Positions 1 to 9,770 of a stretch of 9,874 bases of DNA are shown here, one piece after another. The notes beneath the pieces are model-generated. The model worked only from the letters and a program-made list of their open reading frames with translations. It made no database searches and was not told where the DNA came from. The stretch lies in IMG/VR virus record IMGVR_UViG_2711768008_000004; one strand, written 5' to 3'. The stretch is from a virus. Lineage: Duplodnaviria > Heunggongvirae > Uroviricota > Caudoviricetes. Made by a program: the position numbers and the translations under genes. Positions within the stretch are counted from its first letter, which is position 1, and each line of letters begins with the position of its first letter.

Positions 1-186
1 GCTCGCCACGGGAATATCTACGGCAGCAAGCCAGTAATGGGTTAAGTGATAACAGGTGTCTGGAAATATAGGGGCAAATCCAGCGTTCATCAGCCCCCGC
101 ATTGCCGACAGGATCACAGACGGGGGGCGCAACTGGTTGTCGTTCAACTGGCCCAGCTACCGTTCTTGTATCAGAGGTGTGGCTGC

Positions 187-1578
187 ATGACAACACCAGT
201 CTGGCGTAATGATGACCTGGAAGGCGCTGTCATTGGCGCATTCTTTCTGCGTGGGGCAGATCATGAAGTGATGGATATTCTGATCACACTACCGGCGGAC
301 ATTTTTTCTGTACGAGCGTATCGGGATATCTACACAGGCATCTGCAGACAGGCCCGTGTTTCAGGAGTGATTGACCCCGTGCTGTTGTGTAATGAGATGC
401 CGGAACTTGCCCCGGTGATTACTGATACCGGGCGTAAAACCTGGGTGAAGTCTTCACTGGAGCACTATGTTGCAGCGTTGCGGCGCAATGCCGCACTGCG
501 CGATGCAGAAAAAACACTGAATGAGGCGCTGCAGAAATTACGTGATGCGCATACCTGTGAAGCAGCTGAAGATGCCCTGAAGGATGCGCAGAACATGATG
601 GTCACACTGTCGACAGGAAAGGGCGTCATTCAGCCGGTACATATTGATGATGTGCTTCCGGAAGTGGTTGAGCGTGTTGAATGCCGGAATCAGGGGCTGG
701 AGAAATCCAGGACGTTGATGACCGGTATTGATGAACTGGACGCAAAAACAGGCGGTATGGAGCCCGGAGACCTGGTATTCATTGCCGCCCGTCCTTCGAT
801 GGGGAAAACCGAACTTGCGCTGGACATCATCGACAAGGTGACTGAGCAGGGGCATGGTGTGCTTCTGTTCACCATGGAGATGGCGAACATCCAGATTGGT
901 GAACGTATGGTGTCTGCGGCTGGAGGGATGCCAGTATCACGCCTGAAATCTGTGGCTCACTTTGAAGATGAAGACTGGGCGCGTTTCTCACAAGGGGTGG
1001 GGCGGATGACCGGGCGCAATATCTGGATGGTGGACCAGGCGAACCTGACCATTGATGAGATATGCGCAACAACGAAACACCATCTGATTAAACATCCGGA
1101 AACGGCGCTGGTGGTGGTTGATTATCTCGGGCTGATAAAAACCCGAACCACGGGGCGTCATGACCTTGCCGTGGGTGAAATCTCAAAGGGGCTTAAAGGC
1201 CTGGCAAAATCCGGTGGTTTTCCGTTGATTGCGCTGAGCCAGCTCTCCCGCGGTGTGGAGTCCAGACCCAATAAACGTCCCATGAACTCAGACCTGAAAA
1301 ATTCCGGAGAAATAGAGGCGGATGCAGACATCATTCTGATGCTTTACAGGGATGAAGTGTACAACCCGGATACACAGGCTACAGGCATAGCAGAAATTAA
1401 TATCACGAAACAACGTAACGGTTCTCTGGGGACGATTTACCGGCGTTTTTATAACGGACATTTTCTGCCTGTGGACCAGGAAAGCGCACAGGTTCTTTCC
1501 ACCCCAATGCGGCAGCCCCAGCCGCGCAGATACAGCAATACACGTACCGACAGCAGTAAGATGGAGCGTTTCTTTTGA
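187..1578 (+). CDS. Replicative DNA helicase, DnaB family (phage replication helicase)
   Basis: Long ORF in the frame of 46..1578. DnaB-N-like region begins at ATG 187 (MTTPVWRNDDLEGAVIGAFF...) with GAGG at 174-177, 9 nt upstream. Walker A FIAARPSMGKTELALD; Walker B-like VVVDYLGLI; RecA-like C-terminal core. Stop TGA 1576-1578. In-frame codons 46-186 are W/C/R-rich and not protein-like, so 187 is preferred over GTG 46. Confidence 0.85.
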   Translation: MTTPVWRNDDLEGAVIGAFFLRGADHEVMDILITLPADIFSVRAYRDIYTGICRQARVSGVIDPVLLCNEMPELAPVITDTGRKTWVKSSLEHYVAALRRNAALRDAEKTLNEALQKLRDAHTCEAAEDALKDAQNMMVTLSTGKGVIQPVHIDDVLPEVVERVECRNQGLEKSRTLMTGIDELDAKTGGMEPGDLVFIAARPSMGKTELALDIIDKVTEQGHGVLLFTMEMANIQIGERMVSAAGGMPVSRLKSVAHFEDEDWARFSQGVGRMTGRNIWMVDQANLTIDEICATTKHHLIKHPETALVVVDYLGLIKTRTTGRHDLAVGEISKGLKGLAKSGGFPLIALSQLSRGVESRPNKRPMNSDLKNSGEIEADADIILMLYRDEVYNPDTQATGIAEINITKQRNGSLGTIYRRFYNGHFLPVDQESAQVLSTPMRQPQPRRYSNTRTDSSKMERFF

Positions 1579-1832
1579 ACAACCAGACAATGACTTTTAC
1601 CTCTGAACAATTGCGTAAACACGCGCAGGAAATGTTGCGACAGGCGGAACAACTGGAAAAAACAGGTGTAACAAAAGATGCCATTCGTCGGGATATGGTG
1701 CCAGCGCTCAGGGAACTGATGCAGGCGAAACATCGCGCACAAAAAGCGGTGGATGAGCTCGTTGATTGTGTGGCAGAGCTGGAAACCAAAGTTGGAAAGT
1801 TTGAAAAAATGGTGCAGGAGGTGCTGCGCTGA
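1575..1832 (+). CDS. Hypothetical small protein (85 aa, charged, predicted coiled-coil); function unknown
   Basis: ORF whose TTG start (1575-1577) overlaps the helicase stop, with GGAG at 1563-1566; alternative ATG at 1590. K/E/Q/A-rich sequence. Its stop TGA 1830-1832 overlaps the next ATG (TGATG). Position and coupling support a real gene; I recognise no family. Confidence 0.5.
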   Translation: MNNQTMTFTSEQLRKHAQEMLRQAEQLEKTGVTKDAIRRDMVPALRELMQAKHRAQKAVDELVDCVAELETKVGKFEKMVQEVLR

Positions 1833-2203
1833 TGCGCCATGAGTTTATTTTACCTTATCCGCCGACGGTGAATACTTACTGGCGACGTCGTGGCAGCACA
1901 TATTTTGTATCAAAAGTTGGTGAGCGTTATCGCCGTGATGTGACGCTAATTGTTCGCCAGCAGCGGCTGAAATTAAACCTGTCCGGAAGGCTGGCGATAA
2001 AGATTATTGCAGAGCCACCGGATAAGCGCCGTCGTGACCTGGACAATATCCTGAAAGCACCACTGGATGCGCTGACGCATGCCGGACTACTCATAGACGA
2101 CGAGCAGTTTGATGAAATCAATATTGTGCGCGGTCAGCTCGTTCCTGGTGGGCGACTGGGCGTGAAGATTTATGAAATCACAGGTGATAACGATGGCGCG
2201 TGA
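1832..2203 (+). CDS. rusA: Holliday junction resolvase RusA (crossover junction endodeoxyribonuclease)
   Basis: 123 aa. Matches my recollection of E. coli/lambdoid RusA: N-terminal ...[15 protein letters not shown]..., central [20 protein letters not shown], then LLIDDEQ and GGRLGV. ATG 1832 overlaps the upstream stop; GGAGG at 1817-1821. Confidence 0.85.
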
Positions 2204-2579
2204 TATTCAGCAGGTTATGGAACGGTGGGGGGCTTGGGCTGCAAACACTCATGAAGATGTATCCTGGGCGTCGATCGCTGCTGGTTTTAAAGGGTTAATT
2301 CCGTCGAAAGTGAAATCACGCCCTCAGTGTTCTGATGATGATGCAATGATAATTTGTGGCTGTATGGCCCGGTTGAACAAGAAAAATCAGGATTTGCACG
2401 ATTTGCTGGTGGATTATTACGTAGGTGGAATGACTTTTATGAGTCTGGCACGGAAACATGGGTGTTCGGATACCTGTATTGGCAAGCGCCTGCAGAAAGC
2501 GGAAGGGGTTATTGATGGCATGTTGATGATGCTTGATATCCGGCTGGAGATGGACAGATACGTAGAACGAATTATGTAG
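2193..2579 (+). CDS. Late-gene antitermination protein Q (QuuD-like family of E. coli lambdoid prophages)
   Basis: ORF 2172..2579. Preferred start is ATG 2193 ([23 protein letters not shown]...), overlapping the rusA stop (ATGGCGCGTGA). Strong similarity, from memory, to DLP12 QuuD-type Q proteins (…[47 protein letters not shown]…[20 protein letters not shown]…[10 protein letters not shown]…). A promoter-like and terminator-like element follow immediately downstream. Confidence 0.8.
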
Positions 2580-2583
2580 GTGC

Positions 2584-2613
2584 TTGACCAGACACATTGT
2601 CCGGGGCTATATT
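2584..2613 (+). promoter_or_regulatory. Candidate late promoter PR' (sigma70-like), target of Q
   Basis: TTGACC at 2584-2589 and TATATT at 2608-2613 with an 18-nt spacer, 5 nt after the Q stop. A perfect 6-bp-stem hairpin (CGCCAG-caaaat-CTGGCG, 2621-2638) lies in the predicted initial transcribed region where lambdoid Q proteins engage paused polymerase. Confidence 0.45.
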
Positions 2614-2674
2614 CCTCACGCGCCAGCAAAATCTGGCGTCGGGATTGGAACCCCGGATAGAGACCGCGACAGAC

Positions 2675-2698
2675 ACACGCCGCGAGCGTGTTTTTTAT
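2675..2698 (+). terminator. Candidate tR'-like intrinsic terminator closing a short PR' leader transcript
   Basis: Stem ACACGC (2675-2680), loop CGCGA, stem GCGTGT (2686-2691), then T-run TTTTTTATT. It sits about 60-80 nt downstream of the predicted PR' start, analogous to lambda 6S RNA / tR'. Confidence 0.5.
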
Positions 2699-2824
2699 TG
2701 TCGTATGCACGCGCACATCTGAATTATGGTGGGGCGCATGGGGGAGCTGAAAAGCTCGCCGGTCGGTTTCCCGGTAGTTCCAACCCTGTGCGTCTCACCA
2801 CCCGATGATTGGAACCTGACGGTG

Positions 2825-2853
2825 TTGACAGTTTCAGGTTTGCAGTTTACATT
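2825..2853 (+). promoter_or_regulatory. Candidate sigma70 promoter upstream of the ORF6N-like gene
   Basis: TTGACA at 2825-2830 and TACATT at 2848-2853 with a 17-nt spacer. A weak hairpin plus T7 run follows at 2889-2917 (CCACA...TGTGG TTTTTTT). Confidence 0.3.
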
Positions 2854-3059
2854 TCCCCGCGGTGCTCAAAACACCTCGAAAGCGGTATCCACACCCGATA
2901 GCCATGTGGTTTTTTTGTGTCCAGAATTCTTGGTTTATGACCGGGTGTGCGGCTAATACAATACCAGCAATGGAAATACGCCCGCCGACTTTCGACGGTT
3001 TTGAGCGCCCGGTCACCCTCTCAAAAGGGGTAAATCAAAATATTCGAAAGGACATGTCT

Positions 3060-3623
3060 ATGAATCGCACGTCTATTGAAAAACTCCCGTCACTTACGCA
3101 TAACCATCTTCCTGTCATGACAACAGAGCTGCTGGCTGATTTGTACGGAACAGAGCGCCAGCGTTTGACAAACAATTTCAATCGAAACAAAGAACGGTTT
3201 ATAGAAGGTAAACATTTTTTCCTGATAGAAGGTGATGCGTTACGAGAGTTGAAGAACGAAAACTCTTTAAGAGTTTCTGTGAAAATTGCCCGTAACGTTC
3301 GCTCCCTCATCCTCTGGACAGAACGTGGCGCAGCCCGTCACGCCAAAATGCTCGAAACCGATCAGGCGTGGGAAGTGTTCGAAAAACTGGAAGACTGTTA
3401 TTTCAACCAGAAACAGCCACCAGCGGCACAAAACACATCTATCGAAAATGATGGATGCGCATTACTGAGCCACTTCGATAAACACGGTCAGGTTGAGTTC
3501 ACGGAAAAGGTACCCGCCGATGCGATGGTATGTACTCTGGAACGGTTTAAATTTTATCTGGAGCAACACGGGTGGATCGTTGCCCGTAAAGAGCAACTGG
3601 TGGAGCGGTTGATGCGGTTTTAA
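3060..3623 (+). CDS. Phage antirepressor-like / ORF6N-type DNA-binding domain protein (cargo gene)
   Basis: ORF 2862..3623. Its N-terminal 65 codons are W/C-rich and lack an RBS. ATG 3060 has AAGGA at 3048-3052 (7-nt spacing); ATG 3054 is the alternative. The domain (…LADLYGTERQRLTNNFNRNKERFIEGKHFFLIEGDALRELK…LWTERGAARHAKMLETDQAWEVFEKLEDCYF) resembles ORF6N/KilA-C-type antirepressor domains, from memory. I do not recognise the ~70-aa C-terminal domain. Confidence 0.55.
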   Translation: MNRTSIEKLPSLTHNHLPVMTTELLADLYGTERQRLTNNFNRNKERFIEGKHFFLIEGDALRELKNENSLRVSVKIARNVRSLILWTERGAARHAKMLETDQAWEVFEKLEDCYFNQKQPPAAQNTSIENDGCALLSHFDKHGQVEFTEKVPADAMVCTLERFKFYLEQHGWIVARKEQLVERLMRF

Positions 3624-3698
3624 AAATTTTTTCCGAAAACTTTACGATCGTAAAAAGTTGAATATCCTGTTAAGAGTGGTTACTACGCCACACAGCTT

Positions 3699-3724
3699 AA
3701 ACCCGCCGATGAGCGGGTTTTTTT
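3699..3724 (+). terminator. Intrinsic terminator after the ORF6N-like gene
   Basis: AAACCCGC (3699-3706), loop CGATGA, GCGGGTTT (3713-3720), continuing into TTTTTTTAT. Confidence 0.6.
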
Positions 3725-3774
3725 ATACCTGAAAAACGGCACAGGACGTTAAACGTGCTGGTGGTCAGATGAGT

Positions 3775-3803
3775 TTGCAGATGTGATGACATATGGTTAT
3801 TAT
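3775..3803 (+). promoter_or_regulatory. Candidate promoter for the tRNA array
   Basis: TTGCAG at 3775-3780 and TATTAT at 3798-3803 with a 17-nt spacer; the first tRNA begins at 3813. Confidence 0.3.
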
Positions 3804-3812
3804 TCTGCCTCC

Positions 3813-3889
3813 GGCCCTTTAGCTCAGTTGGTCAGAGCGAGCGACTCATAATCGCCAGGTCGCTGGTTCAAGTCCAGCAAGGGCCACCA
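3813..3889 (+). tRNA. tRNA with anticodon CAU, ileX/ileZ-like (probable tRNA-Ile2, lysidine-modified, reads AUA; tRNA-Met not excluded)
   Basis: Cloverleaf folded by hand: acceptor GGCCCTT/AAGGGCC, D-arm AGCTCAGTTGG, anticodon loop CTCATAA, T-loop GGTTCAAGTCC, discriminator A, encoded CCA. Near-identical to E. coli ileX as I recall it. Confidence 0.85.
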
Positions 3890-3890
3890 A

Positions 3891-3967
3891 CCACCACTAG
3901 CTCATCCGGATAGAGCATCAACCTTCTAAGTTGACGGTGCGAGGTTCGAGTCCTCGGTGGTGGGCCA
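3891..3967 (+). tRNA. tRNA-Arg (anticodon UCU, reads AGA/AGG)
   Basis: Acceptor CCACCAC/GTGGTGG, anticodon stem TCAAC/GTTGA, loop CTTCTAA (anticodon TCT), T-arm CGAGG-TTCGAGT-CCTCG, CCA encoded. Starts 1 nt after the previous tRNA. Confidence 0.85.
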
Positions 3968-3969
3968 GC

Positions 3970-4045
<76 letters not shown>

Positions 4046-4048
4046 TAT

Positions 4049-4123
<75 letters not shown>

Positions 4124-4258
4124 GCGAGATTTGAGACGAAGGTTGTTATTTGCACTGACACAATATTGTGTGGGAATGTCTGACTCCTTACCATCTCCTG
4201 TTCTGTGATGTTGTTTTGTTGCAGTTCCAGTGCTCTTTTTTCAGCACCAGAATGGTGC

Positions 4259-4621
4259 NNNNNNNNNNNNNNNNNNNNNNNNNNNNNNNNNNNNNNNNNN
4301 NNNNNNNNNNNNNNNNNNNNNNNNNNNNNNNNNNNNNNNNNNNNNNNNNNNNNNNNNNNNNNNNNNNNNNNNNNNNNNNNNNNNNNNNNNNNNNNNNNNN
4401 NNNNNNNNNNNNNNNNNNNNNNNNNNNNNNNNNNNNNNNNNNNNNNNNNNNNNNNNNNNNNNNNNNNNNNNNNNNNNNNNNNNNNNNNNNNNNNNNNNNN
4501 NNNNNNNNNNNNNNNNNNNNNNNNNNNNNNNNNNNNNNNNNNNNNNNNNNNNNNNNNNNNNNNNNNNNNNNNNNNNNNNNNNNNNNNNNNNNNNNNNNNN
4601 NNNNNNNNNNNNNNNNNNNNN
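4259..4621. other. Run of 363 N (assembly gap or masked sequence)
   Basis: Uninterrupted n characters from 4259 to 4621. All ORFs crossing it in the six-frame track are artefacts of N translation. Confidence 0.99.
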
Positions 4622-8614: not shown

Positions 8615-9770
8615 TGTTCTTTTCGGGATTATTTCAACGAAAAAGCGATGTGCCGGTGACCACGCCAGCAGAACTGCTGATGCTATCGGGCTGTCATACG
8701 ACACCTATACCGGAAAGCGGATCAGTAGCCAGCGGGCCATGCGCCTGACGGCGGTCTATTCTTGCGTCAGGGTGCTGGCAGAGTCTGTTGGTATGCTGCC
8801 CTGCAGTCTCTACAAAATCAGCGGTACCCTGAAAACACGGGCGGTGGATGAACGACTGCATAAGTTGGTTTCGGCAAAACCTAATGGCTACATGACACCG
8901 CAGGAATTCTGGGAGCTGGTTATTGTCTGCCTGTGTCTACGGGGGAATTTTTACGCCTACAAGGTAAAGGCACTGGGAGAAGTGGTGGAGCTTCTTCCGA
9001 TAGATCCGGGCTGTGTGGAACCGAAGCTGAACAGCCAGTGGCAGCCGGTTTATCAGGTGACGTTTCCGGATGGTTCCGTGGATGTGTTGACCCAGAATGA
9101 AATCTGGCATGTGCGCACCCTGACGCTGGATGGACTTGTCGGGCTGAATCCCATTGCGTATGCGCGTGAGGCCATTTCACTGGCAGCGGCAACCGAGGAG
9201 CACGGTGCCAGGTTGTTTAGTAATGGTGCGGTGACATCCGGTGTGTTGCGTACGGAACAAAAGCTCACGCCGGATGCTTACGAGCGTCTGAAGAAAGATT
9301 TTGAGGAGTGTCACACGGGGCTTGGCAATGCTCACCGCCCGATGATTCTGGAAATGGGGCTGGACTGGAAGTCGATGGCGCTGAACGCCGAGGACAGTCA
9401 GTTCCTGGAAACCCGCAAGTTTCAGCTGGAAGAAATCTGTCGTCTGTTCCGGGTGCCGTTGCACATGGTGCAGAACACCGATCGCGCCACCTTCAACAAT
9501 ATCGAAGAGCTGGGGCTGGGATTTATCAACTATTCACTGGTGCCGTATCTGACCCGCATCGAACAGCGGATCAACACCGGACTGGTACGAAAAAGTAAGC
9601 AGGGCGTTTATTACGCCAAATTTAACGCCGGGGCGTTACTGCGCGGGGATATGAAGTCCCGTTTTGAAGCCTACGCCACCGGGATCAACTGGGGAATTTA
9701 CTCTTCCAATGACTGCCGCGACCTGGAAGATATGAATCCGCGTCCCGGTGGTGTAATGCCGATCAGTTAA
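8614..9770 (+). CDS. Portal protein, HK97 family; 5' end shows a reading-frame discontinuity (probable frameshift or sequencing error near 8700-8720). Uninterrupted in-frame core is 8739..9770
   Basis: Long ORF (frame of 8523..9770) has the portal signature …AMRLTAVYSCVRVLAESVGMLPCSLYK… First well-placed in-frame ATG is 8739, with no RBS. A GTG at 8614 with GGAGG 6 nt upstream opens a different frame that reads MFFSGLFQRKSDVPVTTPAELLMLSGCHTTPIPE… and stops at 8746-8748. The upstream part of the long frame (from ATG 8523) is C/W/R-rich and not protein-like. Confidence 0.8.

Follow-up and report, generated by a model that had tools for sequence, protein, structure and literature searches.

The closest described counterparts of the operon analysed here, which occupies positions 2825–3724 of a 9,874-nucleotide stretch of Caudoviricetes DNA (IMG/VR record IMGVR_UViG_2711768008_000004, hereafter the window) and carries the putative antirepressor gene ant, are the immI region of phage P1 and the isrK–anrP region of the Salmonella prophage Gifsy-1. 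As annotated, P1 immI is composed of a sigma70 promoter, two target boxes (a1, TTGACAG, and b1, GTTAGTG), a hairpin followed by a T-run, the c4 antisense RNA with the sequences CACTAAC and CTGTCAA, and a second pair of boxes, a2 (TTGACAG) and b2 (GTTAGTG), the latter fused to the Shine–Dalgarno (SD) sequence of icd with the ATG 10 nt further on. The c4 RNA is excised from its transcript, with processing by RNase P, and the heteroimmunity of P1 and P7 is an established case of specificity based on the boxes. In P22 immI, the antirepressor is controlled by the small antisense sar RNA, which comes from the opposite strand, and ant is additionally under the protein repressors Arc and Mnt. The CI RNA of P4 acts through transcription termination on the replication genes. 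It is cited in PMC4825925 as a processed antisense RNA with complementary sites (seqA and seqC) on both sides. The Gifsy-1 region is arranged in the order antQ, isrK, C4 (STnc1160/orf45), anrP (encoding a protein of 187 residues), isrJ, tRNA-Arg and lysis genes. Transcription of anrP is driven by the isrK promoter, anrP is not translated unless the short IsrK RNA is supplied in trans, and the prophage is induced, with a rise in antQ mRNA, when AnrP is expressed (Hershko-Shalev et al. 2016, PMC4825925). Positions 2825–3724 of the window probably form an immunity and induction operon of the P1 immI type, in a variant with two RNA modules; a system of this kind is already known from P1 and Gifsy-1, and nothing in it is categorically new.

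The operon resembles P1 immI in the order of its elements and in their spacing, and all of its elements, as well as those of the module upstream of it, are located on the plus strand. The 206 nt between its promoter and ant (2854–3059), which went unnoticed in the preliminary description of this DNA, are filled with RNA elements. The target boxes of the leader (2861–2882) comprise the hairpin GGTGCTCAAAACACC with box a1 GCTCAAAAC (2864–2872), followed by box b1 TCGAAAG (2876–2882). A weak terminator (2889–2916; CCACA...TGTGG followed by seven Ts), the hairpin of which is present in the minimum-free-energy fold, would release the a1–b1 segment as an IsrK-like RNA of about 55 nt. The 84-nt c4-like antisense RNA (2939–3022, hereafter RNA #2) matches the Rfam family sRNA-Xcc1 (RF02221) over model positions 1–87 of 87, with 77.4 bits (gathering threshold, GA, 53) and an E-value of 3.9e-14. 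It can be divided into an outer stem, hairpin 1 (AAUACAAUACC...GGAAAUA), hairpin 2 and a 3′ CACCC. The loop of hairpin 2 is formed by b′ CTTTCGA (2989–2995), and a′ GTTTTGAGC (2998–3006) is single-stranded and positioned 3′ of the loop. P1 and the window share an antisense RNA of about 77–84 nt, the placement of b′ in the loop of hairpin 2 and that of a′ on the 3′ side of b′.

The downstream targets of RNA #2 (3020–3052) are a2, represented by CTCAAAAG at 3020–3027 and/or ATCAAAAT at 3034–3041, and b2 TCGAAAG at 3044–3050. Box b2 overlaps the SD sequence of ant (AAGGA, 3048–3052), and the ATG begins 8 nt past the end of the box. The a1 and b1 boxes of the leader are exact complements of a′ and b′: b′ at 2989 is exactly complementary to TCGAAAG at both 2876 and 3044, and a′ at 2998 is complementary to GCTCAAAAC at 2864 and to CTCAAAA at 3020. 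The exact boxes alone were used in the analysis, because the application of RNAduplex to whole segments returned inflated and noisy duplexes. As in P1, the antisense RNA would be cotranscribed with its target, the output would be an antirepressor, and the variable boxes would be the determinant of specificity.

The window also differs from P1 in several respects. An icd-like open reading frame (ORF), by way of which the expression of ant is governed, separates b2 from ant in P1, whereas no such ORF is present in the window, and b2 masks the SD sequence of ant directly. The P1 antirepressor Ant1 contains an ANT/KilAC domain (PF03374), whereas the product of the window gene belongs to the ORF6N family. 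Unlike P1 c4, RNA #2 is a member of the sRNA-Xcc1 class, whereas an antisense RNA further upstream in the window (RNA #1) does match the C4 family. Finally, the window operon is located in a lambdoid prophage just after the antiterminator gene Q, with two RNA modules in tandem. With the isrK model, the leader of P1 immI (L152 231–318) reaches 35 bits against a threshold of 50. A hairpin and T-run immediately follow b1 there, so that P1 may also release a short, IsrK-like a1–b1 RNA.

The pairing of the antisense RNA with both of its flanks is conserved beyond this locus. A search with the hairpin 1 pattern retrieved 120 viral contigs, from which 102 distinct complete loci were obtained. A three-way match required that 6 nt or more of an RNA zone be complemented exactly in both the upstream and the downstream flank, and the non-cognate control sets combined RNAs with the flanks of other loci. 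The hairpin 2 (b′) zone produced a three-way match in 64% of cognate, 4.3% of non-cognate and 2.7% of shuffled sets, and the a′ zone in 67%, 10.8% and 1.8%, respectively. The 102 loci contain 45 distinct b words. In seven near-identical modules, the differences are mainly concerted changes at b1, b′ and b2 (CGAAAG/CTTTCG, CAGTAG/CTACTG and CAAGTAG/CTACTTG). A run of at least five Ts is located 3′ of b1 in 63 of the 65 loci with a b match, at a distance of 22–29 nt in nearly all of them. The 3′ end of b2 contains an SD motif in 53/65 loci, and an ATG is positioned 8–11 nt past b2 in 51/64. In an alignment of 69 homologues, the stems of RNA #2-type RNAs have a covariation score of 0.405, compared with 0.152 in shuffles (none of 500 shuffles scored as high), and the hairpins are 90–100% paired. 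The genes that follow the RNA module are, judging by their domain families, of the antirepressor type in nearly all of the 70 loci scanned: the downstream Pfam families are P22_AR_C (18), Bro-N (17), KilA-N (16), P22_AR_N (11), Rha (11), AntA (8), ORF6C (7) and ORF6N (5). The comparison therefore characterizes the RNA module as a portable regulator of antirepressor genes with a hypervariable b box, which is the pattern that should be expected of an immunity-specificity determinant.

The promoter of module 2 (2825–2853; TTGACA-17-TACATT) matches 10 of the 12 consensus positions, and the transcription start site is expected near 2860. A match in a scan says little by itself, because four promoter-like sites were found in 2400–4300 and 1.4 (± 1.4) are expected from shuffles. 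Nevertheless, the hexamers are retained in Escherichia coli EC12 although the spacer differs, and a promoter match of at least 9/12 precedes the a1/b1 boxes in 46 of 65 related loci but in only 1 of 65 control segments, which makes the promoter solid. In addition, the record of phage Nil2 contains a promoter annotated "by homology" (8919–8958; L002 4027–4066) directly 5′ of a stretch that resembles module 2 (8959–9145). The ant gene (3060–3623) encodes a protein of 187 residues from the ORF6N-domain antirepressor family, as indicated by Pfam, PHROG and the homology to AnrP, and its SD sequence is located 7 nt 5′ of the ATG. An alternative start at ATG 3054 was rejected since it is replaced by ATA in EC12. 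An in-frame ORF of 253 residues starting with GTG (2862–3623) was rejected as well, as it spans the RNA elements and close relatives have 2-nt indels in the b1 box within it. The Pfam domain ORF6N (PF10543) covers Ant residues 13–97 (E 8.8e-21; 74.4 bits, cut-off 27.8), and PHROG 2379 "anti-repressor" covers residues 2–187 (E 4.4e-85). The AlphaFold2 model of Ant, with a predicted local distance difference test (pLDDT) score of 74, consists of an N-terminal domain (residues ~17–114), a disordered linker (114–130) and a small C-terminal domain (133–186). The operon ends with an intrinsic terminator (3699–3727), in which an 8-bp stem (3699–3720) is followed by a T-run; the fold of 3624–3727 has a z-score of −2.4. 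A related genome (L148) lacks exactly the 38 bp equivalent to 3696–3733, which form the terminator hairpin, and transcription of the cassette would therefore continue into the tRNA genes there.

These features agree with the preliminary description, which recognized a self-contained unit between Q and the tRNA and lysis genes, with its own promoter (2825–2853), an antirepressor-like gene with an N-terminal ORF6N domain, and a terminator (3699–3724) that was also identified by our scan. The ORF6N domain is present, and ant does not belong to the conserved late core, since among relatives that share this Q it is accompanied by one RNA module in some and by two in others. Transcription in the lysogen independently of Q, as proposed there, is probable. 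However, this transcription should not amount to expression, since the mRNA contains a c4-type RNA with its target boxes, one of which overlaps the SD sequence of ant.

The interval between Q and ant contains matches to four Rfam families, c4-a1b1 (2607–2659), isrK (2620–2696), C4 (2722–2805) and sRNA-Xcc1 (2939–3022), the first three of which belong to module 1. The promoter of module 1 (2584–2613; TTGACC-18-TATATT, 10/12 matches), equivalent to PisrK, is located 5 nt past the stop codon of Q and occupies the position of the lambdoid PR′; its hexamers align with the isrK promoter region of Gifsy-1. The IsrK-type leader RNA (2620–2696) scores 77.5 bits with isrK (GA 50) and 50.1 bits with c4-a1b1 (GA 46.7). 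Two hairpins contain a1 TTGGAAC (2645–2651) and b1 GAGACCG (2660–2666) and are followed by a terminator (2675–2696); the predicted fold has three hairpins in all. The preliminary description had labelled this terminator tR′; the isrK match and the homology to the promoter–isrK–C4 region of Gifsy-1 instead identify 2675–2691 as the end of the IsrK-type RNA of a second antisense module, although it may additionally serve as tR′. RNA #1 (2722–2805), the equivalent of STnc1160, matches C4 with 71 bits and has b′ CGGTTTC (2764–2770) in its loop and a′ GTTCCAA at 2777–2783. Box a2 of module 1 (2809–2815) is TTGGAAC, the same as a1; in a word search, this heptamer was found at 2645 and 2809 only, and its complement at 2777 only.

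In single-module relatives, b2 of module 1 is positioned on the SD sequence of ant. In the window, this b2 and SD segment is replaced by module 2 (an alignment with L153 and Gifsy-1 shows the junction), and transcripts that begin after Q therefore also enter the cassette. We propose that module 1 is the older of the two. A search for b2 of module 1 in the window produced one heptamer, GAAACCG (3354–3360), which is at chance level. This heptamer is located in the most conserved part of ant and is an exact complement of the loop of RNA #1 (2764–2770).

The window has the same order of Q, isrK, C4, ant, tRNA and lysis genes as Gifsy-1. Positions 2584–2830 are about 90% identical to the promoter–isrK–C4 region of Gifsy-1, including the terminator and the AUGs of orf45. 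Ant is 49% identical to AnrP over 184 residues (E 6e-58), both proteins are 187 residues long, and by sequence and position Ant is the orthologue of AnrP. The two regions differ in that the window contains an additional module of about 230 nt (promoter, leader and c4-like RNA) between C4 and ant. Furthermore, the a-box is TTGGAAC in the window but TTGGCGT in Gifsy-1, and the Q proteins are unrelated: the 135-residue window Q (PF06530; 2172–2579) has no BLASTP similarity to the 225-residue AntQ. Since the DNA right after the Q stop codon is nevertheless about 90% identical (window 2579–2620 and Gifsy-1 L003 34316–34349), a mosaic joint is located at the end of Q. A search for isrJ 3′ of ant returned no match at E ≤ 1 in 2560–3810, with Gifsy-1 itself scoring 100 bits.

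The elements described above suggest how the operon may work. In the lysogen, both promoters would fire, and most transcripts would end at the leader terminators. Transcription from the sigma70 promoter of module 2 would produce the leader with a1 and b1, and the weak terminator at 2889–2916 would end part of the transcripts. Read-through RNA would contain the c4-like RNA, followed by the ant mRNA with a2 and with b2 fused to the SD sequence. The c4-like RNA, presumably excised in the same way as P1 c4, would pair through b′ and a′ with b2 and a2 and block the translation of ant, so that the cassette would be transcribed but silent. Three events could result in the synthesis of Ant: titration of the c4-like RNA by the short a1–b1 leader, as by IsrK in trans in Gifsy-1; entry of a superinfecting relative with a different b box, causing a mismatch; or flooding of the region by Q-modified polymerase. 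Ant would then inactivate the prophage repressor, which would raise early transcription up to Q and reinforce induction.

Several points weigh against this proposal. It is based on sequence, and the gene of the prophage repressor lies outside the window. RNA #2 has no match to the Rfam family C4 (RF01695) at E ≤ 1, so that its putative homology to P1 c4 is architectural. The thermodynamic signal is modest, with z-scores of −1.6 for the c4-like RNA and +1.0 for the module 2 leader, and the outer stem is poorly supported in the MAFFT alignment (55% paired, with a register shift). Of the related loci, 36% lack a b word that is matched exactly over 6 nt or more on both sides; these may use G–U pairs or shifted boxes. 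AnrP itself is not known to bind a repressor, and for Gifsy-1 the control of anrP was attributed to activation by IsrK together with translation coupled to that of orf45, rather than to a c4-type repressor (PMC4825925). In the literature, sRNA-Xcc1 is treated as an integron-borne, trans-acting small RNA of Xanthomonas that is linked to virulence.

The published explanation for Gifsy-1 could apply to the window unchanged: the short leader RNA would refold the long mRNA so that ant can be translated, coupled to a small ORF on its 5′ side, and the c4-like RNA would not be a repressor. We consider this very unlikely, even though the mechanism was described for the homologue of module 1 (PMC4825925) and the start codons of orf45 (+107 and +119 in Gifsy-1) are kept at 2726 and 2738. 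In Gifsy-1, orf45 ends beside anrP, which makes translational coupling possible, whereas the window frame does not. The equivalent ORF (2726–2956; 76 codons) crosses the promoter of module 2 into RNA #2 and stops 104 nt before ATG 3060; it was rejected as a real gene because it passes through a promoter and RNA elements and because close relatives have 2-nt indels in the b1 box, and in the window phage it probably has no part in translational coupling. The interval between Q and the lysis genes is the classical cargo site of lambdoid phages, and ant could instead be accessory, with constitutive expression in the lysogen that serves conversion or anti-defence and is unrelated to the lysis–lysogeny switch. 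The cassette is located in this site with its own promoter and terminator, it varies among relatives with the same Q, and its terminator is an indel in one of them. Nonetheless, this explanation is very unlikely, as the families matched by Ant are those of antirepressors and its orthologue AnrP induces Gifsy-1, which by homology argues against a host-serving function, and nearly every scanned locus has an antirepressor-family gene 3′ of the RNA module. Constitutive expression is also disfavoured by a leader antisense RNA aimed at the SD sequence of ant itself. The comparison with stx cargo made in the preliminary description is therefore replaced by one with anrP, the counterpart of the cassette at the same genome position, and among the roles that it had listed (lysogenic conversion, induction control and anti-defence) the evidence favours induction control.

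The regulation could also be as in the proposed P1 immI-type operon while Ant promotes lytic transcription directly, either as a regulator that binds DNA or as a toxic protein of the KilA kind. This is highly improbable, given that the PHROG and homology-based annotations uniformly describe an antirepressor and that Gifsy repressors are inactivated by binding proteins, as a passage of Lemire 2011 (PMC3121763) has it, although neither point is decisive. The least probable of the explanations weighed here is that the sRNA-Xcc1-like RNA regulates host genes in trans and that its proximity to ant is incidental. Papers on sRNA-Xcc1 link it to control by HrpG/HrpX and predict host targets; however, in 64% of loci the variable loop of the RNA finds a matching site in each of its own two flanks, compared with 4% for non-cognate combinations, the neighbouring gene nearly always encodes an antirepressor, and the geometry is that of P1 immI. 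The context of the RNA in the window is a prophage antirepressor operon and not an integron cassette. One study of an APSE phage places an sRNA-Xcc1-type RNA 5′ of an ORF6N gene and gives no function for it, and no link of sRNA-Xcc1 to c4 or to antirepressor control was found in the literature, our coverage of which is incomplete.

The comparison of loci suggests that sRNA-Xcc1 behaves as a c4-type immunity RNA rather than as a virulence RNA. A broader reading combines three claims: that the whole sRNA-Xcc1 family is a second class of c4-type immunity RNAs, which gate the translation of antirepressors through a programmable b box of 6–8 nt; that short terminated leaders, including IsrK, are built-in decoys; and that tandem modules constitute a feed-forward loop. 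This reading is, in our judgement, about as likely as not. If the first claim is correct, the 45 b words in the 102 loci represent a code, written in RNA, that specifies superinfection immunity and cross-induction between prophages. Under the second, the effect published for IsrK would come from the titration of a repressor RNA. Under the third, polymerases that read through from the promoter behind Q would be coupled to the synthesis of the antirepressor. Should the c4-like RNA gate ant as proposed here, the induction and cross-induction of co-resident Shigella and E. coli prophages would depend on matching 7-nt RNA boxes that are legible from sequence, a widely annotated family of "virulence sRNAs" would acquire a concrete, testable function, and the action of IsrK in Salmonella would become simpler to explain.

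Antirepressor switches set the time at which prophages awaken, including those of Stx phages with module 2 5′ of antB. A module 2 with 87–88% identity is located 5′ of antB in the O104:H4 Stx2a phage P13374, the Shigella Stx phages 75/02 and POCJ13, and phages 2851, Nil2 and TL-2011c. The N-terminal 124 residues of these Stx-phage antirepressors are 67% identical to those of the window Ant, whereas the C-terminal domains differ, and their genes are positioned near the integrase or in the nin region, not 3′ of Q. Deletion of ant in Phi24B was proposed to lower the efficiency of induction; RNA control is not described there (PMC3064807).

The window as a whole covers the part of a lambdoid prophage devoted to late regulation and packaging and contains, in order, a DnaB-like helicase, RusA, Q, four tRNAs, a run of undetermined bases (N), lysozyme, Rz/Rz1, HNH, terminase and portal genes. 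The four tRNA genes (anticodons CAT, TCT, TGT and TCC) form a tightly packed array at 3813–4123. A promoter scan identified a promoter-like site, TTTGCA-18-TATTAT (3774–3803), 10 nt 5′ of this array. Positions 1–4258 of the window are 100% identical to CP032523.1, and the exact 187-residue Ant protein is present in thousands of assemblies, the closest named cluster of which is Shigella sonnei. The run of 363 Ns (4259–4621) corresponds to 659 nt in the otherwise identical CP032523.1 (L145 7200–7858), so that the window is about 296 nt short downstream of it; the sequence behind the run comprises an ORF of 98 residues without a Pfam match and the 5′ half of a holin gene (PF04971). IS (insertion sequence) copies around the prophage in other related genomes suggest that it may be defective in some strains. 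In the related genome L144, the DnaB-like gene contains an insertion of about 1.26 kb at the equivalent of window positions 416–419, with a 4-bp overlap at its flanks; this is probably an IS element, with a transposase (rve) gene called nearby.

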